Shown: one piece after another, positions 10,409-61,048 of the stretch | Position numbering within the stretch: position 1 is the first letter of the stretch | Layout of the letters: each line of letters begins with the position of its first letter | NCBI GenBank assembly: GCA_030390025.1 | Contig: CM059432.1 | Coordinates: 42,348,001 to 42,412,000, forward strand | From: Squalus acanthias | Lineage: Eukaryota | Direction: 5' to 3' | Length of the DNA: 64,000 bases | Notes under the pieces: model-generated | Databases searched by the model: none | The model's input: only the letters and a program-made list of their open reading frames with translations | Told to the model about the DNA's origin: nothing | Program-made: the position numbers and the translations under genes

Positions 10409-10592
10409 GGAGTCATTTTGCCTTTGGGTGCTAGAGTAACATGGATGGTATCGATTCAGCTGCCCGATATGCATCCCTCCCTATTTTCATTTTCATTGAC
10501 TTTAATAGAAATAAAAATTGTGAGAGATGTATATCGGGCGGCTGAATCGATAGCGCCCATTTTACATTATCGCCCAAAGTCAAAATTACATT
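10409..10592. mobile_element. ~180-bp fully palindromic (hairpin) MITE
   Basis: The left arm ..TATCGATTCAGCTGCCCGATATGCATC.. is the reverse complement of the right arm ..GATGTATATCGGGCGGCTGAATCGATA... Ends are GGAGTCATTTTGCCTTTGGG / CCCAAAGTCAAAATTAC. Confidence 0.75.
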
Positions 10593-11356: not shown

Positions 11357-13214
11357 ATGGCTGAACATGCGAGGGAGCGTGCACCAAGGCTTTCAGACAC
11401 TGCACTGGAGCTCTTGGTGGAAGAGGTGGAAAGGAGAGACGTCCTGTATCTGCAGGGGGACCGGAGGCCCTCCAGACAGATGCTCAGGAGGCAGTGGGAA
11501 GAAGCAGCGGCGGAGGTCAATGCCAGGAGTATTGCTCCAAGAACATGGATGGAGTGAGTGTAGGAAGAAGTTTAACGATCTGACACGAGTTGCCAAGGTC
11601 AGTGAGTTCATCTTCAAATGGCACATCCTACTAACTGCACCACTAGCCTCATCCATTGCTCAATTCACTACACCCCCCATCATCCATCTACCAACAATCT
11701 CTATCAATCAGTACACAACCCTAAAATTCATATGCTTTACCTGATCCTCACACACTTAGTACTGTTGCAAGCCTCACATCCACAACTCACAGCTTGCACA
11801 TTTTGGCAGCGATTCAACCATGACAGCCATATCACCCAAACATATTTCAGAACATTCACTGACATACTTCCCTCTTTCTTGCAGGAGAAGGTGGCGCATA
11901 ACAGCAGGCAGCAGCAAAGAACTTGAGAGGACAAGCGCGCCTGCATGTTTTAACCCCCATGGAGGAGGCAGTGGGAAGGGGCATTACTGAGTCCGTGGCC
12001 ACTGGCAGTGCTGATGCAATCACTGATGACGGTATCTGCATACCTAATCCTCCTTCTCTCATCCACTTCTCCCTCATCCCTCAATCTCTTCTGACTTAGA
12101 AGCTGCAGATCGTATAAGCACGCACTTCTTACTTTCTCCTCTCTCGTCACCACAACCTATCCCTTGTCCCTTTTTCATTTCAGATATCCAAGATCTGGAG
12201 CCTTCCCAGTCAGTGAAGGAGGAGGAAGAAGACAGTGAAGATGAAGAGACACCGTCTCTCGATCTTACAGTCACAGCCACCAGCTCAGGTACTGACACTT
12301 GACGTATTTTAGAGGCTAGGATAGAGGAGGGATCTGCATGTGATAAGACACCAGGCACAAGTGCACAGGAGCCAGGGCAAGGCGAGGGGCCAGCTCGCCG
12401 GAGGGCACGGTCACTCACTTTGTTCTGCTGCAGAGGACTCCGATGAGGACATCGACGGGCTAGGCTACAGAAGAAGGCCGATGGTTGTGCATAACCAAAT
12501 GCTTGGTGCACTGGAAAGCCTGCCAGAAAGCTTCTGCTTAATGTCAAGGAGCATGGAGGAGTCCTGCACCAACTTGGCACAGGGCTTTGCGCAGACCTTG
12601 GAGCCCATCCTTTCCGACATGGAACGGGTGGTCACCTCCATCAACACACCTGTGGAACCCACCATGATGCAACATCTGATGGCCAATGTCACAGCTTCCA
12701 TTGCAGCACAAACAACTTCTGCAATTGAAGGTCAGACTGCTGCCTTGCAAGCTCAGACTGCTGCCATTATGGCTCTGGATACCACTGTCAAAGGGGCTTG
12801 CAGGGTGTCATAGCAGTCCATCAATCCTTTCTCCAATAGATCAGTCGGATTGTTGAAGCACCGTTCCAGGAGAGTGGCAGTGGCTCCATGGAGCACGAAC
12901 CTGCTTTCCTCTCTCAGGATGTCAGCATTCCTACTCCCATCCCTGCCACTCTGCCAGTGTCCTTGCTGTTGCCTGTCAGCCAGCCAGCCCAGATTGCTGC
13001 AGCCCAGGCTGAAATAGTGCAGTCTGAAGCTGAGCCTTCTAGGCCCAGAGCTGCTCGAGGTTGCCCTCCTAGGCCATCTGCAGTCTCCTCAATTGGAGGT
13101 CAGCAGCCTCCCACCACCCATGCTGCAGCCACTGGGGAAGCACCTCATAGGAGCACTAGCATAGGCAAAGGCACACGCAAGAAAGGCACCAAGGGACTGC
13201 ACAAGGGTGATTAG
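11357..13214 (+). pseudogene. Harbinger Myb/SANT-like DNA-binding protein gene, 3 exons, disrupted
   Basis: Exon 1 11357-11597 (RERAPRLSDTALELLVEEV..W..CRKKFNDLTRVAK|gtcagt, frameshift at ~11555). Exon 2 11885-12031 (ttgcag|EKVAHN..). Exon 3 12184-13214 with stops/frameshifts, ending GKGTRKKGTKGLHKGD*. Confidence 0.85.
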
Positions 13215-13386
13215 TTTAATTTTACATGCATTATATCATGATTGAATTTATAAATTGGGATTGGAATGTGCATTTTTCTGGTGGTTTTTATTCCTGTGTT
13301 GTCGGAAAGAGAACGATGTGATGGTCAGTGATAGAGTAAACGTAAGGAGCGTGGGACTGTTGGTGAATGGGGAGGTGTGGTTGAGG

Positions 13387-14589
13387 TTACTGGTATCGCT
13401 CATTAATTATTTCATCACGTAGAGCCCGGGCACAAAGGGGTTGTCTATGTTGTAGCCTCCCTTCCTCTTCCTGTTCCTCCACTTCCTGTTGCAGTTCCTC
13501 CTCCTCCTCCACTTCCTCCTCCACCTCCTCTTCCTCATGCTCCTGCTCCTCAGCTTCTCGCCCGATCGGTGGTGGCAGGGGCTGTCCCCTCATAATGGCC
13601 AGGTTGTGCAGCATGCAGCAGACCACCACAAATGTGGATACCCACTCAGCTGTGTACTGCAGGGCTCCTCCAGAGCGGTTCAGCCAGGGGAAGTGTTGCT
13701 TGAGGACACCGATGGTGTGCTCTATAATGTTCCTTGTGGCAGTATGGCTTTCACTGTATGTCTGCTATGCACGTATGCATGATTTCTGGACCAGAGTCAT
13801 GAGTCATGTCATGAGTGGCTAACCCTTGTCGCCCAGTAGCCAGCCTTTGACTTGGTGTGGTGGGCCAAATACAGGTGGTACAGGTGACTGCCCCAGAATG
13901 AAGGAATCATGACTACTGCCAGGATAACGGGCATTCACCTGCATGATGCGCTGCCAGTGGTCACACATCAGCTGCACATTGAGGGAATAGAATCCCTTTC
14001 CATTCATGAAAATGGCTGAGTTCAGATGAGGCGCACACAAGGCAATGTGCGTGCAGTTAATGGCACCCTGGGCCATGGGGAAGCCTACAATCCATGCATA
14101 ACTTTGTGCTTGATTCTTCTGCTTGTCTCTTGCAAGGGGGAATGAGATGAAGCTGTCTCTCTGTGTATAGAGAGCCTCAGTGACCTCCCTTATGCAGCAG
14201 CGTACTGCAAACTGAGAGATGCTGCTTATATCTCCAGCAGCAGCCTGGAAATAGCCAGATGCATAAAAGTTAAGAGCCACGGTCACCTTGATAGCCACAG
14301 GCAATGCGTTCCTTGCCCTGCTTTGAGGTTGCAATTGTGGCTGTAGCAGTTGGCAGATTTCAGTCACAACCTCTTTAGTGAAGCAAAGACATCTCAAGCA
14401 TTGGTCCTCACTGAAGCTGAGGTAAGGGAATTGCTCCTTAAAGACACTCGGTGGATATGACCTCCTGCTGAGAGCCCTTGTCCCCTTCCTCCTCCTTCCT
14501 CTTCTAGCAGCTTGTCCTGCTCTCTGTGGCCTCTCTTCATTCTCCCACTCATGCTCAATTCCAAGAGGAAGGCCTACCAGGCCACCCAT
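13387..14589 (-). pseudogene. Harbinger (HARBI1-like) DDE transposase, disrupted
   Basis: MGGLVG..VTVALNFYASG..GAINCTH (first catalytic D changed to N)..SLNVQL..ARYPGSSHDSF..WLLGDKG* then a frameshift, then VVCCMLHNLA and an acidic tail. Confidence 0.9.
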
Positions 14590-15244
14590 GTCTAGAAGCA
14601 ACTTGTTTCAGCACAAGCTTTTAAATGAACAAAAAAGTACTTCAGCACCAGCCAGACCACTTCCTGTACACTATTGAAACTTTAGGCAAGTATAGGAAAG
14701 CTCCAAAAACACATACTATTGCACCAGCAGACAGAGGAAATAATCCAACAACCAATCTGTAAGTAGTTGATGATCAATGTAAGTAGTGCTGGTGGGGGAT
14801 CCTTCATGCCGTTTAACGTCGTATTCAGCTGTGTGAGGTTAATACAGGGCGTATTGATTGACGTCATAATCTGCCTGCTCTGCATGCTGCTGGTGGTCAT
14901 TAGGTGAGCACGTGTTAAACCCTTTACTAAGATGGCGTCCGGCGCATTTCCCGTCGAAAATATGCACGCACATCTTGGATGCCATTTTCAAACGCTAGGA
15001 AGCCGCTAAAAATATGAAGAAGATGTTTGTTGAAACAATCCAAATGGATTAATATCTTGCGTTACTGTTTCAGTCCAAGGATACTATAAAGAAATGCACT
15101 TTAAATCAAAGTTAATAGAGCACAAATAATTAAAAATTCATGTTAGGTTTTACACTGTTGTATGAAATCTATCTAAAAATTGTCCTCATCAAAGAGGCTG
15201 TGTCACATTACCAAAAAGGGGCAGATGTGGTATAAAAGAGGAGG

Positions 15245-23923: not shown

Positions 23924-25706
23924 ATGCACACGGGTATGCACATGGGTGCATGAACAAATGTTACTGTTAAGTTTCAGTTAATTTTGTGACACACATAAAT
24001 GTCTTTTTTTGCACCACTTTCTGGTCTTGTCCATTTTTGCCTGCTACCTTGGAAGCGGTTTTGTCACTTGGAGTGAATGGTGAGACATTACTTAACCTCG
24101 AGCACTGGGGGTTTGGGTGAGAGGAATGGCTGGTCATTGTAGGGATGCTTTATGGTGTTGTTGGGGGGGTAACTTAGTACAGCATGTGGCAGCCATGTGG
24201 CTGCTCTGGAGCAAGTTAAGTAAATCTGGCCATGATGAGGCCATCCTAGGCCTCCCGGGCAGCAATGTGCGCCACTGCTGGTGCCATCTCCACCTCAGGT
24301 TCCTCCTCCTGCTCCTCCTCACTGCTGTGCTATGTTGTGCAGCGCGCAGCAAATGACTATGATTCTGGAGATCCTGGCTGGTGCGTACTGAAGGGCGCCT
24401 CCAGATCTGTCAAGGCATCTGGAGCGCATCATCAGCATGCCTATTGCTTGCTCTATGACACATCTGATGGCATGTGGCTCTCATTATAACGCTCCTCGGC
24501 CTCAGTACTTGGCGTCCTCAAGAGTGTCATGAGCCACGTCTTCAGTGGATAGCCCTTGTCTCCAAACAGCCAGCCGATAAGTCTGTTTGGAGTAGCGAAG
24601 AGCTGAGGGAGGGTGGACTGGCACAACATGAAAGAGTCATGACAGCTGCCAGGGAATCTGCTGCACTCATGCATAATTATCTTTTTATGGTTGCAGACAA
24701 GCTGCACATTGAGGGAGTGGAAGCCCTTGCGGTTCACAAACACTCCTGGGTGATGCGGGGGTGCCTTCATGGCCACATGTGTGCAGTCGATGACGCCCTG
24801 CACCTGTGGGAAGACAGCCAGAACCGCAAAGCCGAGCGCCCGCTCAGTCGTCATCGCGTTGTGTTGCTACACCTTCCCTCGCCACTGTTCCACGCAGGCT
24901 CTGGCTTGAGAGTTGAAGTCCCTCAGATTTTTAGGTCTGCATGGCTGTGGTAGTAGAAGGCATTCTAGGAGATGCTCCATTGTTTGAAATGCCTCTCCGC
25001 AGTCACAGTCGGTAGTATCAATTTGGCTGTATCCCCACTTCTGCATGAGGGCTCTGCAGCAGCCAATACCAGTCCTGAGGCAATTGAGACACAGCCAAGT
25101 AGGCCAAGTCTCACTGGCTCCTGTTGGAAGAGATTCCTCTGTATCAAAAGATAGCTTGTGTGGCTTGTCTGCAGATCCTTTGACCAAGCATCTAGTCTAC
25201 AGCTGTGGGAATTACATTCCAAGGGCTGGACAGCATGTAAGAAACTGCTCCTGGAATTGAGCCTCTTAGTTGCTGGCTCGAATTGAAAAAGTGGATGACG
25301 GGGATCACCTTTCCACTCTTGATGAAACTCGCTTTCTTATGAAAGGTGGGGCAATACCAGCAAGCAGGTAAAGATCATCCACCTTCATAGGTTTCAGGCA
25401 GCCAGAAATAGCACTATGGGCTGCATTGAGGACTGGATCCATCTTCTTGGCATGTGAGGAGCGTTCCCAGACTGGACAGGCATATTCAGCTGCTGAATAG
25501 CACAGGGCAAGGGCAATAGTTTGTAAGGTCCTTGGGTCAGTTTCCCATTTAGAGTTGGACAACTTCCTTAAGAAGTTGTTTCTGGCTCCCACCTTCGACT
25601 TTGCTTTGATGACATGATCTTTGGAGTTGAGGGCACGATCTAATGTTACGCCAAGGTATATTGGCTTAGAGTTGTTTGCCAGTCTTCGCCCATACCACCA
25701 GACATT

Positions 25707-26467
25707 GGCCCAGAAATTGGACTTCGATGGTTGCCGCGGGGGTAAGGATCCCCCGCGATATCGCACTCCGCGCCTGCCTTTATGGTTTTGGCCCACATGA
25801 ACTTCTGCTCCTGGGCCTCTCCCTGGTGCCGGCGCGCAGTGTGTGCGTGTCCCAGAGGCGCAGTTAGTTCGATGCGACCACTGGGATCACGTGGGCCAGT
25901 TAGAGCCAATGGCAGCACACCATCTTTCATTCATAGTTTTGACAGGAGAACTGTCAAAGCTATGAATACAACTTGCCCCCAAAAGAACAGCTAAACCTCA
26001 ATTAAATTAAAAAAAACATCACATTAATAAAATAACTATAGTTAAATAAATTAACCACTTTAAACAAAAATTTAAATTTTTGAAAAAATTTAAATTCTTT
26101 TTAAAAGTTATAAAAATAAACTTACCTTTCTTTAAAGTCTCTAAAAAAGATAAACCTGTTGAAAAATTTTTAAAATAATACTTAATTAACTACTTACCTT
26201 GTTAAAAGGGGGTCTTACGCCTCCTTTCTTCATGTGTAAAATCTTCAACACTTACCTTCGCGTTCAAACCTGGAAAAAAAACTAAGTGTGCTGCGTGCGC
26301 GCAGCCTGTAGTGCGCACGCAGTTCACTTAGGAACCGCCCCCTTCGCAATATCGGAAGTGCCGGTTTCCCGCGCATGCGCAGTGCATGCAGGAAACCGGC
26401 ACTTCGGGACCGAATATGGGTGAGTACACAGTGCGTACTCTCCCGTATTCGGACGAATTTCTGGGCC
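25707..26467. mobile_element. Non-autonomous Harbinger-type MITE, 761 bp
   Basis: Perfect 12-bp TIRs GGCCCAGAAATT / AATTTCTGGGCC and an ATT TSD (25704-25706, 26468-26470). Removing it restores the LINE reading ANREHN-VWWYGRRL. Confidence 0.93.
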
Positions 26468-33619: not shown

Positions 33620-34535
33620 GGGGGGAATTTTAACCCAACAAAACAGGTGGGTTGGGGTCGGGTGGGAAGTTAAAGTGTTAAAAATCTGAATCCCGACCAG
33701 AACCCGCCTCCAACCCGCCCACTTCCAGTTTTAACGGAGGCGGGACGGGGGGCGGGTAGTCAACCCACTCCCAGGAGGCGGGTCGTCCATTTAAATATTA
33801 TAATGAGGCTGGCATGCCTCAGATTTAACCACCATTTTAAATTTAACAGTAGCTGGTTGGGTTTTGCAGGCATCGTGAAACCCGCCAGCTAAAGTAAAGC
33901 GAGAACTGCTGGATCCAGGAGGTAAGTGCCTTTACATTTACTTTCTGGATCCAGCGTCCCTGCCTAACAGCCCCCCCCCGACCCGTGATCAATCCACCTA
34001 CAGGCCTCCGATTCCCCTCGCATGAGGCCTCGCCCCCCCATGCTCCTCTGACCCCTATATTGTCTGCCTTCCCCCCACTACCCCCCACCCCGTGCTTCTC
34101 TGGCCCTCCGATGATGCTCCTCCGGCCCTTGATGAGTGCCTGAAAGCCCCCCCCCCCCCCACTCCTCCGGCCCTCCGATCAGCCGCTCCTGCCCCCGATC
34201 TGTTCCCGACACACCCCCAACCCCCGGTCCTCCGGCTCTTTGATCTGCTCCAGACCTGCCCATGCTCCTCCGGCCCTCCGATCTGCTCTGGACCAGCCCC
34301 CTGATACGTCCCTCCCTCCCTGCTCTCTGCGGCCTAGTGCCGCGGGCCTACCCGCCCACAGTCAGCCAGCCAGCCTCTCAATCTGGCTGGCTGCGGGTAG
34401 AAAACAGAGGTTTCCAATCCAAATCAGGCCCTGCCATTAAATTCGACAGGGCCTGCGGGAAACCCGTTCTTTCAGGTTTCCCGATTGCTTCAGAGCCCCC
34501 CCGCTCCCAAGCTGGCAAACTATTAAAATTCAAGC
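33620..34535. mobile_element. Probable non-autonomous DNA transposon with a GC-rich tandem core
   Basis: Starts GGGGGGAATTTTAA and ends TTAAAATTCAAGC (imperfect inverted). Contains ACCCGCC motifs and internal CTCCTCCGGCCCTCCGAT repeats at 34095-34290. Confidence 0.5.
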
Positions 34536-34780
34536 ATTAGTTTCTGCCCGAACCATCCCCTTCCCCACACTAGTTGCCTCATTAAGACCAGAATTCCAAA
34601 AGGCATTTGTACCTCACCTCAACAATATAAATCTTGCATTCTCATATTTCATCAGCTCAGACCACGACGTTGCAGCCATCTGGAAAAATGAATTTCGAAG
34701 TCTTTGTAGTCAATCAATTTTTACTTTCCATTATAATATTTTCCAAGTAATTTCAAAAACTAACTACAGTTACCTTTCAG

Positions 34781-34799
34781 TCATAGAGTCATAGTCATA
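34781..34799 (-). repeat. Displaced (ATGACTCT)n-type 3' tail of the CR1 at 41820-43920
   Basis: TCATAGAGTCATAGTCATA is the reverse complement of the tail unit that ends the segment at 39098-39107. Confidence 0.8.
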
Positions 34800-35241
34800 G
34801 GGGGAAAAATTCAGTTGGTTGCGCCTCCCGTTAGCACCTTAAGAGGGCGCTAATGGGGCGCAAAGCCGCTAGCGCCCAGGGCGCAGCGATGTTTGCGCCG
34901 CTGGGGAACTTAACTAGACATTGTGCGGCGGCGCTAAACTTTACCGCCGCGACCACCTGCGCGCGCAGATTGTGACGTCATTCCATGGTGCAACGCCCTT
35001 GTGGCGCCCCGGAGCGGAAATTGAGTGGCGCCCCCTGCCTTACCGCCTGGCGCATCCAACGACCGGAAAACTGGAACGCTATCAATCGCTGTGGGGCTGG
35101 GGGGGCGCTATTTAAAGGGGGCCTCTTCCTGTCTTTTTCTGTGGTTGACATTTTTGCACCACTCGTTCTGAGAGAGAGAGAGAGATTCGGAGAGAGAGAA
35201 AGAGAGACTTCTACATTGAGTCAACGCTTTGTGAGGTAGTT

Positions 35242-36456
35242 TTGCCTACTGATCCTAACTTCGCTGGTACTTTGGTTGCTGTTCTTCATAACTTTGCTTG
35301 CAAAGAGACTATAGGGGCTGCATTGATTGGGGGCGTCGTCCTGCTCCAGCTGAATTGGAGGACACAGAGACGCAGAGAGAGAGTGGCAATGATGGCCAGA
35401 CGGAGGAGGGCCAACAGGCGTATGTACAGGAGAGCTTACCCTCCCAGGGTATATCGTGAACAGCTCTCCTACATTCATATGTCTGAGGAGCTGTGTTTGC
35501 GAAGGCTGCGATTCAGCAAGGAGGTGGTCACTGAGCTCTGCCACCTGCTGCAGCCAGATCTGCAGCCTCAACTGAGGTCCAGTACGTCTCTGTCGGTGGC
35601 AGTGAAGGTCACAGTGGCTCTCAACTTCTATGCTACTGGCTCATTTCAAGCTGCTGCTGGGGACCTCGCCAATATCTCCCAGTTCGCGGTGCATTGCTGC
35701 ATCCGGCAGGTCACAAATGCCCTCTTTAAAAGGAGACGAGAGTTCATCTCTTTCCCCATGACCCTAGACAAGCAGTGTGACCGCGCTCTGGGCTTTGCGA
35801 GGATAGCGGGCTTCCCCATGGTGCAGGGCGCCATTGACTGCACGCATGTGGCTTTGCGTGCTCCACATGAGAATGCCGAGGATTTCCGGAACAGAAAGGG
35901 GTTCCATTCCTTGAATGTTCAGTTGGTCTGTGACCACAGACAGCTGATACTCGCTGTCAATGCCCACTATCCTGGCAGCTGCCACGATGCTTTCATCCTG
36001 CGCCAGACTACTGTGGCAGAACTTTTCGAGGCACCGCATCAGCCAGTTGGTTGGCTTCTCAGGGACAAGGGGTATCCATTGAGCACCTGGCTGATGACAC
36101 CGCTCCGTACGCCCAACACCCCTGCTGAGCTGCGGTACAACGAGAGCCATCAAGCTACCAGGAACATCATTGAGCGCACAATCGGCGTGCTGAAGCAACG
36201 GTTCCGCTGTCTCGACCATTCTGGAGGAGCCCTGCAGTACTCGCCTGAGCGAGTATCCAACTTCGTAGTTGTGTGCTGCATGTTGCATAACATGGCAATC
36301 GTCAGGACCCAGCCAATGCCACCAGGCCTTGGAGCACCACCAGAGGAGGAAGAGGACGAGGCGGATGATCATCAGCAGCACCAAGGCGGGAGGGCGGCCC
36401 ACAATGGTGAAACTGCAAGGGCCGTCCGTCAACGGCTGATAGCAAGCCGCTTCTAG
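35242..36456 (+). CDS. Harbinger (HARBI1-like) DDE transposase, copy A
   Basis: Open frame with the first ATG at 35389. GAIDCTH / LRDKGY / IERTIGVLKQRF form the D-D-E triad, plus [22 protein letters not shown] and CCMLHN. The conserved G before the second D is R here. Confidence 0.93.
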   Translation: MPTDPNFAGTLVAVLHNFACKETIGAALIGGVVLLQLNWRTQRRRERVAMMARRRRANRRMYRRAYPPRVYREQLSYIHMSEELCLRRLRFSKEVVTELCHLLQPDLQPQLRSSTSLSVAVKVTVALNFYATGSFQAAAGDLANISQFAVHCCIRQVTNALFKRRREFISFPMTLDKQCDRALGFARIAGFPMVQGAIDCTHVALRAPHENAEDFRNRKGFHSLNVQLVCDHRQLILAVNAHYPGSCHDAFILRQTTVAELFEAPHQPVGWLLRDKGYPLSTWLMTPLRTPNTPAELRYNESHQATRNIIERTIGVLKQRFRCLDHSGGALQYSPERVSNFVVVCCMLHNMAIVRTQPMPPGLGAPPEEEEDEADDHQQHQGGRAAHNGETARAVRQRLIASRF

Positions 36457-36768
36457 GGCCCCTGCTGTGGAAATGGCTTCTGCCATTGCTAACAACATCA
36501 ATGAACCCAGCACGCAACCCCTGAGCCGGCCAAGGCACCAATGATTCCAAACACCAAACATGTATATTTTGAATACAAAAACTTATTTATTTTACAAACT
36601 CTGTGTGTGTCATTTCCTCATGACAAACTCATAGAAATAAACACAAAAAAACAGTCATTAACATAACTGGTTCTCACAACCTGGAGATAATGTCCAAAAC
36701 ACTAGACAAAAGTTGGACCACGAACCTCGGCCTTTAATAAAAAAATGACCAGCATTTTGTCACACCTC

Positions 36769-38588
36769 CTACTTTTTGCCCTTCGAGGGTGATCTCCTTC
36801 CCTTGCGCACTTCCCCCCTTCTAACCCTACTGCTCCTCCGTAATGGGACCTCAGTGGCTGCAGCAAGGCTGGTGGAAGGCTGCTGATTGTCAGACCCTGA
36901 CACTGCAGATGCCCCTGAAGGACGGCCTCGACCAGTTCTGGGCCTGGAGGGCCCGGCTGCAGACTGCACCAACTCTGCATGGGCGGCAGCAGTCTGTCCT
37001 ACAGGCGGTGGCAAGCGCAGTGGAGAAGTGACAGTGTTGGCAGCAGGAATGCTGTCATCGTGAGAGAGGACAGCAACTCCCTGCTCGACCGACACACTGG
37101 CACTCCCACGGGGCAGCACTTCAGCATCCGGAGCAATCTGCTGGAGCACAGATTGCTGGCCTGCTGCGGCGCGGTGAGAGCCCCGGGGACCTGTGAACGA
37201 ACCATCGAGGTTGGCAGCAGTCAGTGCTCGCGTGGCCTCAATCTGAGTCTGCATGAGAGCAGTCAGAGATGGGATCACGGCAGTCAGTGACTGAATTGCA
37301 GCACTAAGCTTTAGTGTGGCATCCGCCTGTGCTACAGCGAAGTGCTCCACACTCCTTGCCAGTGACTCAATGCATTCGGGCACCCTTCCCACTGCACCCA
37401 TGAGCTCAGTGTGCATGCCCACCGCCTGGGTGTTCATTTCTGCGATCAGCCGCTCCTCCTCTGCGTCCATTGCAGTAGGAGTCTCTGGCATACTCTCCCT
37501 CTGGGGAGAAGGCCCCCGTTCTTCACTACCCCCATGGCGTTGCTGCAGCCCGCTGGGTCCTGGAGCTTCACCCTCATCAGACCCTTCCCCCCTGCTCCCC
37601 TCCAGGGAAGGCGTGTTCCCAGTGTGGGCATGGGCTTTCTCGGGAGAGGGTGGCACTGATGCTCCGGCTTCCTCTTCCTCCTCGGCTGCAGCTTCACTCC
37701 CACTGGCAGCTTCAGGGCCCGTCTCCTCAGCTGGTGAATCACCATCTGAAAGCAGGGAGGTACAAGAGTGGCTTTAGCGTGAGGACAGGGTGGCAGTAAG
37801 GGAGGAATAAGTGCAACGAGTTAGCAAGTTGGATTGAAAGTGTCAAAGGCTGGTGTTGTGAGGGACAAGTGGAAGGACAGAGGATAAAAAGGTGATGACC
37901 TTACCATTGCTGTCCAGAACGGGGTCGGCGTCTCCAGTGGCGACGGGACCGATCACCCGGCTTGCCACAATCCTGTGGACGCGCTCCTCAAGATCGCTGA
38001 GGGGTTGCAGCTGAGGCCGCCCTCCACCTGTCCGTTGCTGCTGTCTCCTATTATGTGCCAGCTTGGCCTGCAAGAAAAAGGACAGCATCTGAGTAAATAT
38101 ACAGCCATGGTCTTGCCTGATGTGCCTCCCATAGGTGAATAGCCCTTACTGTATGCAGCCATGGTCTTGCCTGATGTGCCTCCCATAGGTGAATAGCCCT
38201 TACTGTATGCAAAGTGTGGAATGTGTGTGTGTGTTTCATGAAAGGGCCATAGGTATTGGATGAGTGTTGTGCATTGGGGTTTTAAGACCCTCTGGCCATA
38301 GAGTGAGGTTGAGATGGAGGGATGGAGAGGTATGGAGAAAAAGCCACTCACCCTGACGACCCGAGTGAGGTCGTTGAACTTTTTGCGGCATTGAACATGG
38401 GTCCTGGGCACCATGCTCCTGGAGGAGACGCTCTGAGCCACCTCCCTCCACATTCTTCTGTACTCGCGTGGCAAAGGCCTCCTGCCACTCTCAGGGAAGA
38501 GTATAGATCTTCTGCGCTCCACCGCGCCAACCAGAGCATCCAAGGCCCGCTCGGTGAAGCGCTGAGCTCGTTCTCTCACCCTCTCCAT
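36769..38588 (-). CDS. Harbinger Myb/SANT-like DNA-binding protein, 3 exons, predicted 458 aa
   Basis: Exons 38588-38352, 38067-37905 and 37745-36769 with canonical GT-AG introns (phase 0, phase 1). The spliced length is 1377 nt, in frame to TAG. The N-terminus RF...LDALV...W.EVA...QCRKKFNDL is a trihelix/Myb motif. Confidence 0.9.
38102..38209. repeat. Exact 54-bp tandem duplication in Myb gene intron 1
   Basis: CAGCCATGGTCTTGCCTGATGTGCCTCCCATAGGTGAATAGCCCTTACTGTATG x2. Confidence 0.95.
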
Positions 38589-38949
38589 CCTTGGCTGCAA
38601 AATGGATTCACAGGTCTCTCCAGGCCGAGATTCAAGGCTGCAATGAGCAGGGTGTGGCTGGGGAGCAAGTTGGCCCCCCCTCCCTTTAAGAACTGGCCGG
38701 CGCCAGTTGTGTCTATGTTCCCTCGCTAACTGGCAGCACCTGCGCTGCGCTCGCGCGCTGAGTTAGCGCCTCACTGCTCGGCCTTTGCGCCTTAAGACAG
38801 GTGTGCAGCGCCTGATTTAGCGCACCACTCACCTCCCGGGGCGGTAAAAGTGAAGTTTCCAGTCAGTGGCGATAATTAGCGCCAGGCGCTAATTTTTGCG
38901 TCCAGACGATATTTGCGCCCCAAACGGGGCGCGACCTAATTTTTCCCCC

Positions 38950-39107
38950 TCAATGTTTTCAAGGGGAGAATGGATAAGCACTTGAGGGAAATAAACTTGC
39001 AGGGCTACGGGGATAGAGCGGGGGAATGGGACTGACTGGATTGCTCTAGAGAGCCAGCATGGACTCGATGGGCCGAATGGCCTCCTCCTGTGCCGTTATG
39101 ACTCTAT
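38950..39107 (+). mobile_element. Inverted 158-bp piece of the CR1 3' end
   Basis: CR1 ORF2 end and 3' UTR (GGGCCGAATGGCCTCCTCCTG..TTATGACTCTAT) lie on +, while the rest of the element lies on - on both sides. Confidence 0.9.
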
Positions 39108-39128
39108 GGGGGAAAAATTAGGGAGAGT

Positions 39129-39851
39129 ATGCCAGCGACTCCTACTGCAATGGACGCAGAGGAGGAGCGGCTGATCGCAGAAATGAACACCCAGGCGGTG
39201 GGCATGCACACTGAGCTCATGGGTGCAGTGGGAAGGGTGCCCGAATGCATTGAGTCACTGGCAAGGAGTGTGGAGCACTTCGCTGTAGCACAGGCGGATG
39301 CCACACTAAAGCTTAGTGCTGCAATTCAGTCACTGACTGCCGTGATCCCATCTCTGACTGCTCTCATGCAGACTCAGATTGAGGCCACGCGAGCACTGAC
39401 TGCTGCCAACCTCGATGGTTCGTTCACAGGTCCCCGGGGCTCTCACCGCGCCGCAGCAGGCCAGCAATCTGTGCTCCAGCAGATTGCTCCGGATGCTGAA
39501 GTGCTGCCCCGTGGGAGTGCCAGTGTGTCGGTCGAGCAGGGAGTTGCTGTCCTCTCTCACGATGACAGCATTCCTGCTGCCAACACTGTCACTTCTCCAC
39601 TGCGCTTGCCACCGCCTGTAGGACAGACTGCTGCCGCCCATGCAGAGTTGGTGCAGTCTGCAGCCGGGCCCTCCAGGCCCAGAACTGGTCGAGGCCGTCC
39701 TTCAGGGGCATCTGCAGTGTCAGGGTCTGACAATCAGCAGCCTTCCACCAGCCTTGCTGCAGCCACTGAGGTCCCATTACGGAGGAGCAGTAGGGTTAGA
39801 AGGGGGGAAGTGCGCAAGGGAAGGAGATCACCCTCGAAGGGCAAAAAGTAG
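39129..39851 (+). pseudogene. Truncated Myb-like gene (3' part of exon 3 only)
   Basis: A 240-aa ATG-initiated ORF identical, except one residue, to the C-terminal part of the 36769-38588 product. The DNA-binding exons are deleted. Confidence 0.85.
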
Positions 39852-40163
39852 GAGGTGTGACAAAATGCTGGTCATTTTTTTATTAAAGGCCGAGGTTCGT
39901 GGTCCAACTTTTGTCTAGTGTTTTGGACATTATCTCCAGGTTGTGAGAACCAGTTATGTTAATGACTGTTTTTTTGTGTTTATTTCTATGAGTTTGTCAT
40001 GAGGAAATGACACACACAGAGTTTGTAAAATAAATAAGTTTTTGTATTCAAAATATACATGTTTGGTGTTTGGAATCATTGGTGCCTTGGCCGGCTCAGG
40101 GGTTGCGTGCTGGGTTCATTGATGTTGTTAGCAATGGCAGAAGCCATTTCCACAGCAGGGGCC

Positions 40164-41378
40164 CTAGAAGCGGCTTGCTATCAGCCGTTGACGGACGGCC
40201 CTTGCAGTTTCACCATTGTGGGCCGCCCTCCCGCCTTGGTGCTGCTGATGATCATCCTCCTCGTCCTCTTCCTCCTCTGGTGGTGCTCCAAGGCCTGGTG
40301 GCATTGGCTGGGTCCTGACGATTGCCATGTTATGCAACATGCAGCACACAACTACGAAGTTGGATACTCGCTCAGGCGAGTACTGCAGGGCTCCTCCAGA
40401 ATGGTCGAGACAGCGGAACCGTTGCTTCAGCACGCCGATTGTGCGCTCAATGATGTTCCTGGTAGCTTGATGGCTCTCGTTGTACCGCAGCTCAGCAGGG
40501 GTGTTGGGCGTACGGAGCGGTGTCATCAGCCAGGTGCTCAATGGATACCCCTTGTCCCCGAGAAGCCAACCAACTGGCTGATGCGGTGCCTCGAAAAGTT
40601 CTGCCACAGTAGTCTGGCGCAGGATGAAAGCATCGTGGCAGCTGCCAGGATAGTGGGCATTGACAGCGAGTATCAGCTGTCTGTGGTCACAGACCAACTG
40701 AACATTCAAGGAATGGAACCCCTTTCTGTTCCGGAAATCCTCGGCATTCTCATGTGGAGCACGCAAAGCCACATGCGTGCAGTCAATGGCGCCCTGCACC
40801 ATGGGGAAGCCCGCTATCCTCGCAAAGCCCAGAGCGCGGTCACACTGCTTGTCTAGGGTCATGGGGAAAGAGATGAACTCTCGTCTCCTTTTAAAGAGGG
40901 CATTTGTGACCTGCCGGATGCAGCAATGCACCGCGAACTGGGAGATATTGGCGAGGTCCCCAGCAGCAGCTTGAAATGAGCCAGTAGCATAGAAGTTGAG
41001 AGCCACTGTGACCTTCACTGCCACCGACAGAGACGTACTGGACCTCAGTTGAGGCTGCAGATCTGGCTGCAGCAGGTGGCAGAGCTCAGTGACCACCTCC
41101 TTGCTGAATCGCAGCCTTCGCAAACACAGCTCCTCAGACATATGAATGTAGGAGAGCTGTTCACGATATACCCTGGGAGGGTAAGCTCTCCTGTACATAC
41201 GCCTGTTGGCCCTCCTCCGTCTGGCCATCATTGCCACTCTCTCTCTGCGTCTCTGTGTCCTCCAATTCAGCTGGAGCAGGACGACGCCCCCAATCAATGC
41301 AGCCCCTATAGTCTCTTTGCAAGCAAAGTTATGAAGAACAGCAACCAAAGTACCAGCGAAGTTAGGATCAGTAGGCAA
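40164..41378 (-). CDS. Harbinger (HARBI1-like) DDE transposase, copy B
   Basis: Open frame with the first ATG at 41231. IDCTH, canonical LGDKGY and IERTIG are present. It differs from copy A at two residues. Confidence 0.95.
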   Translation of the reverse strand: MPTDPNFAGTLVAVLHNFACKETIGAALIGGVVLLQLNWRTQRRRERVAMMARRRRANRRMYRRAYPPRVYREQLSYIHMSEELCLRRLRFSKEVVTELCHLLQPDLQPQLRSSTSLSVAVKVTVALNFYATGSFQAAAGDLANISQFAVHCCIRQVTNALFKRRREFISFPMTLDKQCDRALGFARIAGFPMVQGAIDCTHVALRAPHENAEDFRNRKGFHSLNVQLVCDHRQLILAVNAHYPGSCHDAFILRQTTVAELFEAPHQPVGWLLGDKGYPLSTWLMTPLRTPNTPAELRYNESHQATRNIIERTIGVLKQRFRCLDHSGGALQYSPERVSNFVVVCCMLHNMAIVRTQPMPPGLGAPPEEEEDEEDDHQQHQGGRAAHNGETARAVRQRLIASRF

Positions 41379-41819
41379 AACTACCTCACAAAGCGTTGAC
41401 TCAATGTAGAAGTCTCTCTTTCTCTCTCTCCGAATCTCTCTCTCTCTCTCAGAACGAGTGGTGCAAAAATGTCAACCACAGAAAAAGACAGGAAGAGGCC
41501 CCCTTTAAATAGCGCCCCCCCAGCCCCACAGCGATTGATAGCGTTCCAGTTTTCCGGTCGTTGGATGCGCCAGGCGGTAAGGCAGGGGGCGCCACTCAAT
41601 TTCCGCTCCGGGGCGCCACAAGGGCGTTGCACCATGGAATGACGTCACAATCTGCGCGCGCAGGTGGTCGCGGCGGTAAAGTTTAGCGCCGCCGCACAAT
41701 GTCTAGTTAAGTTCCCCAGCGGCGCAAACATCGCTGCGCCCGGGCGCTAGCGGCTTTGCGCCCCATTAGCGCCCTCTTAAGGCGCTAACGGGAGGCGCAA
41801 CCAACTGAATTTTTCCCCC

Positions 41820-43920
41820 TGAGTGTCTCCTCTTCCACCACTTCCGTCGGTAGCGAGTTCCAGGTCCTCACCACTCGCTACGTAAAAAAGATTTTCCTCA
41901 CATCCCCCCTGTATCTCTTGCCCAAAACCTTAAATCTGTGTCCCCTAGTCCTTTTACCATCAACTAGTGGGAACAGCCTTTCACCGTCTAACCTATCCAA
42001 ACCCATCATAATCTTGTACACCTCTATCAAATCACCTCAACTTCCTTTGCTCTAATGAAAACAAATCCAGCTTCTCCAACCTGTCCTTGCAGCTAAGATC
42101 CCCCATCCCTGGAACCATTCTAGTAAATCTCCTCTGCACCCTCTCAAGGGCCTTCACATCCTTCCTAAAGTGTGGTGACCAGAACTGGACGCAATACTCC
42201 CAATCGATATTTGGGTAATTAAAGTCCCCTAATATCACCACTCTAAAGCTCTTGCATATCCCTGCGATTTCCCTGCAGATTTGCTCCTCTACCTCCCTCT
42301 CACTAATTGGAGGCCTGTAGAATACCCATAATAGCGTGATCATACCATTTTTGCTCCTCAACTCTAACCAAATGGATTCTGTCCTTGTCCCCTCAAGAAC
42401 ATCCTCCCTTTCCAACACTACAATGTCTTCCTTAATCAGCACTGCCACCCCACCTCCCTTTTTCCCTTCCCTATCTTTTCTGAACACCTTGTACCCTTGA
42501 ATATTAAGTGCCCCGTCCTCACCGTTTTTAAGCCACGCTTCTGTTATTGCCACAACATCATATTGTCACACGGCTAATTGTGCTTGTAGCTCACTAACCT
42601 TATTCACCACACTTTGGCGTTTATGTACATGCATTCTAAACCCATTTCTGAATTTTTCATAGTCTTTCTTAGTCTGTTTCTATCTAATATGGTACTACTT
42701 CCACCTCTACTACTACTTTCTTCTCTAGTACTATCCAACACACTCACTCTTTTATACACTTTATTCCTCTTTTCTACTCCTATATGCTGGTGCCCATCCC
42801 CCTGCCAAGTTAGTTTAAACCCTCCCCAACAGCACTAGCAAATCTTCCCATGAGAATATTGGTCCCGGCTCTGTTGAGGTGTAACCCATCCAGCTTGTAC
42901 AGGTCCCACTTTCCCCAGAAACGGTCCCAATGCTTCAGGAATCTAAAGCCCTCCCTCCTGCATCATCTCTCCAGCCACACATTCATCTGTTCTATCCTTC
43001 TATTCCTGTACTCATTAGCACGTGGCACCGGGAGTAATCCGGAGATTACTACCTTTGAGGTCCTACTTTTTAATCTCTCTCCTAGCTCCCTAAACTCTGC
43101 CTGCAGGACCTCATCCCTCTTTCTGCCTATGTCGTTGGCAATGTTGGACAACGACCTCTGACTGTTCACCCTCCCCCCTCAGAGTGTCCTGCAGCTGCTC
43201 AGTGACATACTTGACCCTGGCACCAGGGAGACAACATACCATCCTGGAGTCACGTCTGCGGCCGCAGAAACGCCTGTCTGCTCCCCTAACTATCGAATCC
43301 CCTATGACTATTGCTCTTCCACTCTTTTTCCTCCCTCCCGTGCAGCTGAGCCACCCTTGGTGCCGTGGACTTGTCTCTGGCTGCATGCCCCAGAGGAACC
43401 ATTGCCCTCACCAGTACTCAGAACACAATACTAGTTGGAGAGCGAGACGCACTCCGGGGACTCCTGCACTACCTGCCTGGTCCTCCTCTTCTGTCTGGCG
43501 GTCACCCATTCTCTCACTGCCTGCATGCTCTTAAGCTGCGGGGTGACCACATCCTGAAATGTGCTATCCACGTAACTCTCGGCCTCGCGGATGCACCGCA
43601 GTGACTCCAGCTGCTGCTCAAGCTCCGAAACACGGATCTCAAGCTGCCGTAGCTGGTGACACTTCCTGCATATGTGGTCGTCCAGGACTTCCCACATGGC
43701 ACAGGATGTGCACTGCACGGGACTGAGCTGCCCTGCCATGCCTCTATTTAATAGACTTAGCAGAAATAAACTTAAAACTTAAAAAGAAACACTCACCAGC
43801 TACTCACCAATCAGCTCCTTCCCTTGTGCCGACATCACTTTTTCTACTCTGATGTCACTCTTTCGAATTCTGCCTCTATTGAGTTGCTGCCTCTCTCGCT
43901 CTGCTCCCGCCCAGGTCCAC
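41820..43920 (-). mobile_element. CR1 LINE with 5' UTR and ORF1 and a large ORF2 deletion; 3' end disrupted by the Harbinger pair
   Basis: ORF1 starts at 43739 (CTSC..CRKC, IGDSIVRG). The endonuclease (ITEAWL..GDFNYPNIDW) is fused directly to the post-RT EYCVQFWSPH at ~42200. Confidence 0.92.
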
Positions 43921-55087: not shown

Positions 55088-57899
55088 CAAAGACTGTATA
55101 TGTTTGTAACCATAGAGTCATTATTAATGTTTGAGCTTGGCGGCTTATTATATATGTATAAGAAACTATAGCCTAGAAATTACTGATGCAGATATTAGCG
55201 AACAAATAATTCATGCATTCATATGACATTCCTCTATTTAATATTAGAGCAGAAGAATTAATCCATTTAAAATAAGTAGATTGAGCCCTGTGTTAAAATA
55301 GCAGATGAAGGAATGCCATATAAACACATGGGCAAGATTACATCCAACCAACAAACTTGGCATAAACATTTGAAAACTGACGATCCCTGTGGCAAAGAAG
55401 TTTCGCATCTCTTTGGATTGAAGGCCGCTTGCAGAGCGAGAGAGAGAGCAGAAGGGATCCAAGTTGAGATGTAAAGTTCCGTTACTCAATTAAATTAAAT
55501 GGTAAGTCAATTAAATTAAAAAGAAACATAATTTAAAATCATTACTAGTTAGTGCGTAATTTTTTATATAGATTATGATTTAAATATTTCTGCAAAAAAT
55601 CTGTTGCATCACTTCTTCGCAATAATTAAAAAAATAGAAAAAGTGAATAGCTGCTTTTGCATCCAAAGTACAGCAAGCATCCACTGATTTCACATCGATT
55701 GCTAATGGTTCTCTCTTATATCTGCCAAGATGGTGCTGGATCTTCTGAGGTGTCACATTCACCTGAACCTGTAAACATTGGCAAACACTTCACTGTTGTA
55801 GTGTTTGATTAAGATGAGGCTTTATGATTAATCTACCCAGCCCCACTCTGCTTAAATATCTATTATCCAGCATCTTTATAAATGTCACCCTTTTAAAGTG
55901 ATGGAGGTGCTTCCTGTGTTTCTCATCATCCTTGGTACTTTGTACAGATAGTTTTCTCAGTGATAATTTCAGGGTTAATTTGTGTGGCAGCCCATTCTAT
56001 CCTCTTTGCTTTTAACCAAAAAATTAAATTCTTACTCACTGAATATGAATTTCATGTATTTTGGCATTGCAAATCATTTTAATATATTTACTTCCAGCCA
56101 ACACTAAGCCACACTCAAGTGCTTCATTTTCAGCTATCAAAGTTATTTAATTTGTAGCTTTATTTCATTGAATGGCTTAACTCACCATTTGCGTTACCTT
56201 GGAACAAATGTGGAAAACAGCTTTTGTATGGGTTTGTGATACTCTGCACTGTTTGCGCATGGTTAATGTAATGAGCCTGTGCGTAGCTGGATTTTTCTCT
56301 TAATTTTTTACATAGAATAGAAATCCTTAGCAGCGTTTTCTAGAAAGCCTGCTCTCATGAATTCTCCAACACACTGCACCACAACGTATTAGAACTCAGG
56401 TCTGTGCCTGTGATTTCCCACACAGTGAGCTCCGGATTTCAAATGTGCCACCTCGGGCTATTGCCATCTGGAGGCCAGGCATTTCAACATGGGGGCGCCA
56501 GGAGAGGGGGGGAGGGGAACTACAAGGCCGATAGTTCCACAAAAACGATAGGTCCTATAGGAAGCAATGGTGAATTATCATTCTGGCAACATCCCACAGC
56601 TAGTTGTGAATGGAAGCCCAGAAATATACAAAGCAGCAAGTCTATGAAGGGCCACAGGTGAAGGGAAGCAGGTCACAAATAGCTCCAGGGCCATGTTATG
56701 AGCTTTATATCCACACAGAAGATGATACAGGACAAAATTAAGGAGAGTTATTCTTTACAAGAGGGAAAGCAGCTTTTAAAGAGGGAGGCTCCCCACCACC
56801 GCTAATTTTTAAAACAAGATACAAATGATTAGGATTAAAAGGAAATAACAGTACAGTGTAAGTACTTCGATTGCACTTATTCCCTTGTGTACGCTCTTTA
56901 CTTTCTTTAAAGATATCTGCCAGCAGCATTGAGGATTCTGTTTATACATTTCCATCTACATTGCAGCAGCCTATGTGTTTGCATTTTTGTAGTTCGTGAA
57001 GTGATGACGTAATGGAGGAGAAATAGGTATGGAGTTTGATTAGGTGTTGCTATTTGCTTTCCAAAATCCGACCATACGCAGACACGTTTAGCTACATTCC
57101 CAACGAACCAACAGCAATACCTGTCCCATTGCTACAGTTGTGAAAGATAAAAAACAGCACCTCATCAGTACAGAAACATCAAAATTCAGTCTTTTTGGTA
57201 GATGACTTCATGCCAATCCTTCTCTGTAAAGACATCATTCCACTGACTGGAATTAAGTGCAGGCTCATATAGAATAGCAGTTCACTACAGAAATTCTTTA
57301 AGGCTGATGACAGGTTTTAAAAGAAAATGCAAAGCAGATGTATGGAGTTCATTGCATTCAGTTTTATATGATAAATACTTATCTTACTCTGACATTTTCT
57401 TTAATTTTAATTTTATTTTGGGGGGGATTTTAACTGCGAGCTGGATTTAAATGAAGCCCAGGAGTTAATATACCCCTGGTCTCATGTTTGGAGTGACTTT
57501 TTAACTCACACCACTGCTCACCTGCCCAAACCATTTAAAATCAGGGGGGGAAAATTGGGTATCGCCCATTTTGGGCGTTAATATCAGCCGGGTGCAAAGT
57601 TTAGCCCCCGGTGCTAATTATCGCCGCCGATCGCGAAATTCGTCTTCAGCGCCCCGGAGGTGATTTGAGCGCTAAATCAAGCGCTACACACCTCTCTTAG
57701 AGCGCTAACATTGGGGAGCGAGGCGCTACCTCAGAGCGCTACTCAAGCTCCGGCGATGTCAATTACCTTGTATCCAGACAGACTGGCGCCTTCCAGTTCT
57801 TAAACGGGAGGGTCCATCTTGCTGCACAGCCGCACCCTGATCATTGCAGCGTTTAGCCTCGGGCTGCAAGCAGGTAAAAATATTCCTCAAACATTTGTG

Positions 57900-59809
57900 A
57901 TGGATACTCAGAGGCCCAGGGAGAGAGCTCAGTGCTTTAGTGACCAGGCATTGATGGCTCTGGTTGGCGCAGTTGAACGGCGACGGGCAGTGCTCTTTCC
58001 AGAGAGTGCCAGGAGGCCATTGCCCCGCGAGTTGAGAAGAGTCCGGAGGGAGGTGGCCCAGCATGTGTCATCGCGGAGCCTGGTGCCGAGGACGCATACA
58101 CAGTGTCGTAAAAAGTTCAACGACCTCACTCGGGTGGTCAGGGTTAGTACCTGCTTTTCAATACTTCTACATCCCACCATCTCAACCTCACTCTGTGCCC
58201 AGACGGTGTAAATACACAAATGCCCAACACTCATCCAACAACTATGGCCATTTCATAAAAGTCACATGCACATCCCACACCTTGCACACATTAGCGGCAA
58301 TTCAACTATGGTAGGCACATCTGCCAAACACATGGCTGCACACTCACTCACATGCTGTCCTTTTTCTTGCAGGCCAAGCTTTCACATAACCGCCAAGAGC
58401 AACAGTGGATGGGAGGAGGACAGGCGGAGCTGCACCCCCTCACATAATTGGAGGAAGAGTCCACAGTCTCATTACGAGCCAGGTAGTAGGCACTGTGGCT
58501 GTTGGAGAGGTTGATTCCCTTGGGGACAGCAATGGTATGTTCATCAGCTTTCTCTCCTCTCTCATATCACTTCCCCCTCACAACACCAGCCTTTTACACT
58601 TTCAATCTAACTATACTGTCTCCATTCCTTGCTCTCTTCCTGTCTCCCTGCCCTCGTGCTAAAGCCACTCTTGTACCTTCCTGCTTTCAGATAGTGATCT
58701 ACCAGCTGAGCAGCCTGTCCCTCAACCAGCCAGTGGCAGCGACACACTAGAGGAGGAGGAAGAGGAAGCCAGAGCCTCACCACCTGCGTCTCCCGAGGGT
58801 GACACTTCCGACACTGGGGCCACGCGGTCACTGAAGGGGAGCAGGGGGTTTGCATCTGATGTGGGTGAAGCTCCGGGACCCAGCGGGCTGCAGCAACACC
58901 ATGGGGGAAGGGAAGCTCGGGGGCCATCTCCCCGGAGGGTGAATGCGCGGATGAGTTCTGCTGCACAGGACTCGGATGAGGACCTCGATATAGCGGTCAT
59001 GAATACTCAGGCTCTGAGCATGCATACGGAGCTCATGGGTGCAATGGCAAGGGTGCCCGACAGCATAGATGTACTGGCTAGGAGTGTGGAGGAGTCCGCC
59101 GCCAGCACAGCTGTCATCTGTGGAAACCCTTGAACCCATCCTTACCTCATTGCAGAGGATGGTTGAATTACAGGGAGACCATGGGGACCCAGAGCCCATG
59201 CCACGTGTAATGGGTGAGGTGGGAGGATCTATTGCAGCACAGGCCGACGCAACGCAAAGGCTTAGTGCTGCATTCGAGTCATTGGCTGGTGCCATCCAGT
59301 CTCAGACTGTTCTCATGCAGTCTCAGATTGATGCCATGCAAGCGCTGACTGCTGCCATCATCTCTGGGTCGCCCACAGTCCACCGGGGATCTGACGGTGC
59401 CGCAGCAGGCCAGCAATCTGTGCTCGAGCAGATTGCTCCGGATGCTGAGGTGCTGCCCCGTGGGAGTGCCAGTGTGTCGGTCGAGCAGGAAGGTGCTGTC
59501 CTCTCTCAGGATGACAGCATTCCTGCTCCCACCACTGCCACTTCGCCATTGCACTTGCCACAGCCTGTAACCCAGCCAGCCCAGACTGCTGCCGCCCATG
59601 CAGAGTTGGTGCAGTCTGCAGCCGGGCCCTCCAGGCCCAGAGCTGGTCGAGGGCCTCCTTCAAGGCCATCTGCAGTCTCTGGATCTGAGATTCAGCAGCC
59701 TTCCACCAGCCTTGCTGCAGCCACCGGAGCCACATTACAGAGGAGCAGTAGGGTTGGGAGGGGGGAAGTGTGCAGGGGATGGAAATCGCCCTCGAGGGCC
59801 GAAAAGTAA
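57900..59809 (+). pseudogene. Harbinger Myb/SANT-like gene, 3 exons, frameshifted
   Basis: Exons 57900-58142, 58373-58534 (1 nt shorter than the intact copy) and 58691-59809 (frameshift at ~59110), with the same splice positions as 36769-38588. Confidence 0.88.
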
Positions 59810-60109
59810 AAATTATCCAATAAATGGGGGGAATGTTTGTGACAAAGTTTGATGTTCATCTTAATATATTTGTTTACTGTGTTGAGCTTATCTCGATGTG
59901 GCAAGAATGAGTTTTGTTAGTTTATGAATTGTTGTGTTTGTTTGTAATTCTTTGTCCTGAATAATAGTTTGACATATAAATAAAAAATTTTATTGGAACT
60001 TTACAACTTTGCTCATTTGACTCAGTGGAGCTTTGCCCGGCAATAGGGGCTGCGGGATGCTTGCGATGATGTGCTTCTTCATCCCAGAAGCCATCTTCTC
60101 TGTCAGTCA

Positions 60110-61048
60110 TCAGAAGCGGTGTCTTATCAGCTGTTCATGGACAGCCCTTACAGAGGCAACATTATACTCCTCCCTCCCACGTTGGTGCTGCTCATCCTCC
60201 TCTTCATCCTCCTCCTCCTCCTCCTCCTCCTCTCCCTCTTGCTCCTCCTGAGGTAGTGCACCAATCCCTGGTGGCAATGGCTGTGTCCTCAGAATTGCGA
60301 GGTTGTGAAGCATGCAGCACACAACAATGAAAACCGATACTCGATCGCGGGAGTACTGCAGGGCTCCTCCAGAGTGGTCAAGACACCGGAACCGTTGCTT
60401 CAAGACGCCGATCATCTGTTCAATGAGGTTCCTGGTGGCGCTATGGCTCTCATTGTATTGGAGCTCAGCAGGAGTGTTGGGGTTACGAAGCGGTGTCATC
60501 AGCCAGGTGCAGAATGGATAACCCTTGTCCCCAAGGTGCCAGCCACAAGGTTGATGCGGTGGTTGGAAGAGGTCTGGGAGACCAGTCTGGCACAGGATGA
60601 ATGCATCGTGGCTGCTGCCAGGACAGCGGGCATTGACGGCGAGGATGCGCTGTCTGTGGTCACAAACCAACTGCACGTTCAGAGAGTGGAAGCCTTTGCG
60701 GTTGCGGAAAACCTCTGCATTTTCATGAGGCGCCCGCAATGCCACTTTCACCTTCACTGCCACCGACAGTGATGTCCTGGTCCTGAGCCGAGGCTGCAGA
60801 TCTGGCTACAAGAGGTGGCGGAGCTCAGTGACCACCTTCTTGCTGAAGCGCAGCCTTCTGAAACACTGCTCCTTGGACAGATGAATGTATGAGAATTGCT
60901 CCCGGAATACCCTGGGAGGGTAAGATCTCCTGTACAGAGGCCTGTTGGCTTTCCTCCCTCTGGCCACATTTGCCACTCTCTCTCTGAGCCTCTGCGGCCT
61001 TCGAAGGTGAAGCTGGAGGACAACGCCCCGAGTTAGTAGAGCCCCCAT
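60110..61048 (-). pseudogene. Harbinger transposase with an in-frame core deletion and a stop
   Basis: MGALL..RFSKKVVTELRHLL* (stop at 60806). VAVKVK-VALRAPHEN is fused with IDCTH absent. GDKGY and IEQMIG are retained. Confidence 0.9.

Follow-up and report, generated by a model that had tools for sequence, protein, structure and literature searches.

Exchanged target-site triplets and an inverted LINE spacer between two near-identical Harbinger copies in Squalus acanthias, a possible product of hybrid-element insertion

The stretch of DNA analyzed here, referred to in the following as the window, comprises 64,000 nucleotides of the Squalus acanthias assembly GCA_030390025.1 (contig CM059432.1, positions 42,348,001 to 42,412,000 of the forward strand). 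It contains two copies of a Harbinger DNA transposon, A and B, which lie in opposite orientation within one long interspersed nuclear element (LINE) and are separated by a 158-bp spacer (Table 1). Copy A was assigned to PIF/Harbinger by its DDE_Tnp_4 transposase, a separate Myb/SANT gene, 12-bp terminal inverted repeats (TIRs) and a target-site duplication (TSD) of 3 bp. Its transposase reads LRDKGY, where B (mismatch at 36061) and 20/26 other copies read LGDKGY. Additional exons of the second gene, down to ≈36770, were read by eye only, and a Pfam search of 36772–37773 matched no family. A also carries a 54-bp tandem duplication at 38098–38205, between exons of the Myb gene. A first-pass annotation had described A and B as two near-identical copies. 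This holds for the 2.7-kb arms, where B differs from A 34800–37497 by four substitutions and one 1-bp indel, but B is not a full copy, as 1,437 bp are absent. The deletion junction passes through a 3-bp microhomology and occurs only once in the 3.7-Gb assembly, and the idea that B belongs to a mobile deleted subfamily was rejected on that ground.

Table 1. Features of the Harbinger–LINE locus, in window coordinates.
Feature	Coordinates	Strand	Basis or remark
Outer LINE remnant, 8-bp repeat tail	34780..34799	-	Sequence; empty copies end in the same repeat
ATA triplet, half of target site 1	34797-34799		Sequence
Harbinger A, full length, 4,150 bp	34800..38949	+	12-bp TIRs 34800-34811 / 38938-38949
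Transposase open reading frame of A, 355 aa, open	35389..36456	+	Pfam DDE_Tnp_4, E 2.3e-39
Segment of A without counterpart in B, 1,437 bp, covering most of the Myb gene	37498..38934	+	Global alignment
Myb/SANT-domain exon of the second gene of A	38352..38588	-	Pfam Myb_DNA-bind_5, E 1e-10
Inverted LINE 3' end, 158 bp, including TCA 38950-38952 and TAT 39105-39107	38950..39107	+	Alignment
Harbinger B, 2,712 bp, twin of A 34800-37497	39108..41819	-	Transposase 40164-41231
Right-end remnant of B, 15 bp	39108..39122	-	Deletion-junction microhomology forms its last 3 bp
LINE body	41820..42200	-	Opens with TGA 41820-41822, half of target site 2

Neither copy has a matching TSD of its own. A is flanked by ATA on the left and TCA on the right, and B by TAT and TGA; the two left-end triplets (ATA and TAT) are reverse complements of each other, as are the two right-end triplets (TCA and TGA). 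For comparison, 40 family copies were fetched, 36 of them the best matches to the right end of A and 4 matching 35260–35370. Both ends could be located in 32, and because 26 of these carried their own matching TSD, the unmatched triplets at A and B are abnormal. A hand calculation from the TSD spectrum of the family put the chance of a double swapped match at ≈0.014. When the spacer was re-inverted in a model sequence and compared with empty LINE copies, all 12 of 12 aligned as a single block of 467–544 bp (88–94% identity) running across the body junction. The order found in the assembly gave two blocks on opposite strands in 11/12. We consider this continuity of the LINE a stronger test than the TSD match. 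The swapped TSDs and the inverted 158-bp spacer are thus confirmed in the assembly, with coordinates, triplets and spacer length just as the first-pass annotation gave them, and the continuous LINE that it expected from flipping the spacer was recovered. The locus has the features of an inversion bounded by transposable elements: copies in opposite orientation, exchanged TSDs and a pre-insertion sequence that is restored by re-inversion. There is no flanking deletion or duplication, the LINE being continuous once the spacer is re-inverted. Folding of 38900–39160 revealed a sole feature, a 15-bp stem closing the spacer (z −3.3), which is there because of the TIRs.

The host LINE, putatively a CR1 element on account of its 8-bp tail repeat, belongs to a family of which one member (L122) encodes RVT_1 (E 3.6e-35). 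Relative to the copies at two other loci (L069 and L085), the host copy has an internal gap of ≈1.9 kb at 42198–42200, past which the LINE resumes at 42198 and extends to at least 43196. Both insertion sites are hotspots in this CR1-like family. By exact-pattern counts, the TCA site is occupied in 148 cases and empty in 7,510, and the tail site is occupied in 597; in the Harbinger family itself, exact end motifs number 3,625 for the right end and 10,572 for the left. Besides the tail repeat, the second hotspot (38950–38952 / 41820–41822) sits 155 bp inside the LINE 3′ end. Both sites resemble the extended palindromic target preference of the family, which has A at position −4 in 28/32 copies, C at −1 in 23/32, G at +1 in 25/32 and T at +4 in 27/32. 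A target preference of 9–15 bp has been described for Harbinger elements (PMC2836001).

A search for two TIRs 132–192 bp apart returned 58 loci, 50 of them among the matches listed. Of the 50, 22 (counting this locus) share this LINE spacer and both of its junctions. The other 21 contain MITEs (miniature inverted-repeat transposable elements) as well as full-length elements, in every orientation, and all are unflipped; at one of them (L073), two full-length copies occupy the same two LINE sites in direct orientation. Since 21 further loci, of those examined, carry an insertion at each of these sites, a pair of Harbinger insertions 155 bp apart is unremarkable in this genome. Neither the family-wide hotspot status of the two sites nor the deletion in B had been mentioned in the first-pass annotation. 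The recurrence of the spacer (22/50) raised the possibility that the A–spacer–B block is a composite mobile element, which was rejected, as the other loci hold unrelated elements inside intact LINE flanks.

A and B are twins. They differ by four substitutions in 2,697 bp, compared with a minimum of 22 and a median of 39 for the 325 pairs formed by 26 other full-length copies, and nine private alleles are common to these two only, against a maximum of two for any other pair of aligned copies. They were the closest of 1,176 pairs in an alignment of 49 rows and 1.5 kb, with clade support of 99/95, and only A and B matched 35260–35370 at 100% among the 40 copies scored of 187 candidates. About 12 substitutions fall on their common stem, with four and none on the tips. 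The split between them, or their last homogenization, appears to be recent relative to the family burst. The arm markers at 35327/35356 and the A-only marker at 38596 indicate one sub-lineage, so that A is not visibly chimeric, by a test that is weak in a star-like and partly mosaic family. A chimeric outer end of A, derived from another subfamily, was also sought and rejected, with no such case among 88 distinct left ends.

Close pairs elsewhere in the genome provided controls. A full-length inverted Harbinger pair only 11 bp apart (L181) showed 29 differences in 2,315 sampled bases (Fisher p 1e-6 versus A/B); it is neither homogenized nor flipped, and its divergence is at the background level. 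This pair (L181–L183, L197–L198; G000:C1, ≈253.014–253.022 Mb) forms a near-palindrome of ≈8.4 kb with an 11-bp loop and a sampled arm divergence of 1.25%. Besides A/B, six inverted pairs have arms of 95% identity or more (L068, L076, L084, L085, L175, L181), and all are unflipped. Eight same-locus pairs of an 893-bp MITE family, four of them inverted, have 0–1 private alleles in common. In the 19 non-LINE close pairs fetched, from 28 listed, the arms were never more than 93% identical and no swapped twin pair was found, with the TSDs of one (L164) being ambiguous. A second search yielded 30 loci with a right end 5–65 bp from another TIR, of which the six that are right-to-right inverted pairs were fetched in part; all six are unflipped. 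At many of these 30 loci, adjacent insertions are spaced exactly 11 bp apart, which matches a single LINE tail-repeat unit and a triplet taken together. No further right-end-to-right-end pairs with spacers of 67–127 bp were found.

Of the 47 close pairs examined, A/B alone is flipped. The rarity is the flip itself, not the double insertion, and conversion between close inverted copies is not general in this genome. Long identical runs at three pairs (L076, L084, L085) had suggested a general homogenization of close inverted pairs, which is unsupported, given that identical runs reach 326 bp between unlinked copies and that linked pairs share only 0–1 private alleles.

According to Delprat et al. 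(PMC2775673), swapped TSDs result from either of two processes, which can be told apart by the copies: ectopic recombination leaves them chimeric, and hybrid element insertion leaves them identical. Chimerism of both copies, as expected from ectopic recombination, was not seen here, and conversion could have erased its signal. A and B are near-identical at a divergence well below the minimum among the 26 other copies, and the LINE shows neither loss nor gain at its flanks. By this test, their twin status favors hybrid insertion over ectopic recombination. Judging from the sequences, it is probable that both copies came from one parent, whether by hybrid insertion or by a local hop. Our leading interpretation, which we put forward tentatively, is that A, B and the inverted spacer may have arisen from one aged parent copy by a single hybrid-element insertion. 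The single aberrant transposition event that the first-pass annotation had offered as an alternative is ranked first here, as it fits the twin pattern better.

Under a hybrid-element insertion, the parent would have occupied either hotspot, the tail site (the commoner of the two) being the more probable. Transposase acting long after the family burst would have brought together a left end from one chromatid and a right end from its sister or from the homologue. The enzyme may have been supplied by a younger subfamily with the same ends. Such a late source is plausible because two members of a younger, related autonomous subfamily (L051, L081, L083), namely L051 and L083, which lie on separate chromosomes, show only 4 differences in 1,509 positions. 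Both ends would then have been inserted at the other hotspot, 155 bp along the same chromatid, giving in one reaction the product flank-ATA-element-TCA-(inverted spacer)-TAT-(inverted element)-TGA-flank. The deletion in B could have occurred afterwards, relaxing a 4-kb near-palindrome. Alternatively, it may already have been present on one allele, in which case the crippled 15-bp right end would have driven trans pairing between the left end of B and the intact allele. We regard it as unlikely that the locus is the germline footprint of a vertebrate Harbinger hybrid insertion driven in this way by an end-deficient allele, through trans pairing with the homologue.

The deletion in B may also be just an ordinary fate of close inverted pairs, because two unflipped pairs show similar deletions in which the spacer-side TIR is kept (21 bp in L069 and 33 bp in L187). 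In all three pairs (the right element of L069, the left element of L187, and B), the deletion lies on the inner side and leaves 15–33 bp of the spacer-side end.

Several observations weigh against the hybrid-element insertion. A local hop followed by recombination yields the same sequence, and the unflipped precursors of a two-insertion route are common (21/21). Of the five differences between A and B, three are no more than 80 bp from an end of the homology (p 0.004–0.012 depending on the test, with a 100-bp zone chosen post hoc), which is the pattern expected from arm-to-arm conversion or from assembler collapse. In all five cases it is A that carries the derived state (p 0.06). A toy likelihood scored a model of repeated conversion 118 times higher than a recent split. 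The subfamily of A contains no other young pair among 26 copies, and there is no second flipped twin pair among the 46 other close pairs (21 + 19 + 6). Lastly, an unflipped inverted pair of 773-bp MITEs (L085) has arms that are identical over the central 437 bp and differ to either side of it, with one private allele in common, and may have been partly homogenized by conversion or have arisen by a local hop.

As its main route, the first-pass annotation had two insertions followed by recombination between the arms. In the form considered here, two independent elements would have entered the hotspots in opposite orientation, and a later intrachromatid recombination or replication template switch would have flipped the spacer and overwritten nearly one whole arm with the other, with differences left near the ends; a return template switch may even have made the microhomology deletion in B. 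The precursors that it calls for are real: both sites are hotspots, the 21 unflipped doubles include a full-length direct pair (L073), and a full-length inverted precursor exists as well (L181). The clustering of A/B differences at the arm ends is in its favor, and template switching is reported both to homogenize arms and to turn the spacer around, although the arms in question measured ≈10–16 bp (PMC8604942). What this route leaves unexplained is the twin status, unless near-complete conversion is assumed, and such conversion is absent from the controls. The tract would have to cover at least 34903–37191 with one donor throughout, and a single-tract model scored 0.18–0.29 of the recent split in the toy likelihood. 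The 893-bp family pairs with their few shared private alleles, the background divergence of L181 and the lack of a chimeric signal in A also argue against it, and the pattern of the higher-scoring repeated-conversion version was not seen in the control pairs. We consider the two-insertion route somewhat unlikely.

The twin status is accounted for equally well by hybrid-element insertion and by a local hop, in which the aged parent would have moved into the neighboring hotspot in reversed orientation, the donor site would have been restored from the sister chromatid, and the identical arms would have recombined and flipped the spacer. There is a precedent for the last step in rice, where the inner segment of an inverted Ds pair 1.1 kb apart was inverted in 33/300 plants (PMC3239180). 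Double occupancy may also exceed independence, with tail insertions in 12/100 occupied and 2/100 empty TCA sites (Fisher p 0.01); the empty sites came from one 30-Mb region, and the excess is not significant against a genome-wide upper bound of 8% (p 0.10). A local hop requires two steps rather than one, and the other doubles are not twins (L085 being uncertain), so hops that leave twins must be rare. We judge this route unlikely. An assembly artefact, in which the arms of an unflipped inverted pair were collapsed and traversed twice, with the inner orientation left arbitrary and differences kept only at the flank-anchored ends, is improbable. The end-clustered differences would fit flank-anchored polishing, and the orientation is known from the assembly alone, in which the left flank has one close match and no second haplotype is present. 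Contigs of four public sequencing runs on 38500–39500 consisted of ≈60-bp pieces swamped by family copies, with none spanning. On the other hand, the same assembly kept the arms apart in a longer and tighter inverted pair that diverges by 1.25%; full-length copies retain private variants and mostly have matching TSDs; the window contains no N; and two mid-arm differences between A and B remain.

Further relatives of A were found in the window. Older, more distant Harbinger copies, 66–81% identical to A, lie at 57545–61048, ≈11600–14600 and 24328–24846, and DDE_Tnp_4 was confirmed for the first two. Self-comparison also revealed short imperfect palindromes at 10412–10589 and 26057–26108, possibly MITEs. 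The repeats are common to other species: public runs labeled as 10 other organisms, and two unlabeled runs, contain 38–55% of the sampled words of 34300–42300, and one of these runs matches 38500–39500 at 98% or more. This sharing reflects kinship, transfer or mixed samples.

The structure at this locus is a footprint without evident function. The rearrangement is tiny, lies in repeat DNA and has no evident effect on the host; what it offers is insight into mechanism. As a rule, swapped TSDs are taken as proof of ectopic recombination, yet A and B are twins, and no clear twins occur among the 27 unflipped control pairs from these LINE ends. The twin pattern and these built-in controls point away from the usual explanation. 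If a parent allele with a single insertion were found, it would indicate that Harbinger transposases, like those of P and Ac, pair ends across chromatids in the vertebrate germline and produce inversions in one step. Should the reading with an end-deficient allele prove true, the paired LINE hotspots would constitute a genome-wide reporter, complete with unflipped controls, for counting hybrid insertions.

Inversions bounded by transposons whose TSDs have been exchanged are well known (PMC2775673, PMC3355041, PMC8225341). No report of a Harbinger inversion by alternative, aberrant or hybrid transposition appeared in the titles or abstract openings of the full-text literature searched, which covers few subscription papers. 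A close parallel in structure is provided by the Galileo inversions 2j, 2q7 and 2z3 of Drosophila buzzatii (PMC2775673), in which cut-and-paste copies in opposite orientation have their TSDs exchanged at the breakpoints and the flanks show neither deletion nor duplication. Unlike A and B, which are twins, the Galileo copies are chimeric, in support of ectopic recombination, and they bound a chromosomal segment rather than 158 bp of one LINE. In its proposed mechanism, the locus resembles hybrid element insertion by Drosophila P elements, for which an inversion between identical opposite copies with swapped TSDs is predicted when ends from sister chromatids or homologues join at one site (PMC2775673). 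The differences are that Harbinger is a two-protein PIF/Harbinger system with a 3-bp TSD, that the present case comes from natural sequence and not from crosses, and that one copy is internally deleted. Inverted Ds elements at rice OsRLG5 (PMC3239180) and alternative transposition of Ac/Ds (PMC8225341) likewise involve close inverted copies with a short intervening segment flipped, but those are hAT elements, observed in plant lines that were transgenic or selected. Reversed-ends transposition, which needs direct copies and loses the intervening segment (PMC8225341), is not seen at A and B. As a family, the element is like zebrafish Harbinger3_DR and rice Ping/Pong (PMC2836001) in having a transposase and a Myb-domain gene, a 3-bp TSD and an extended palindromic target preference. 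It differs from them in a TSD that is mostly NWN instead of TAA/TTA, in its 12-bp TIR, in its thousands of copies, and in having two preferred sites, at a spacing of 155 bp, in the 3′ end of an abundant LINE.

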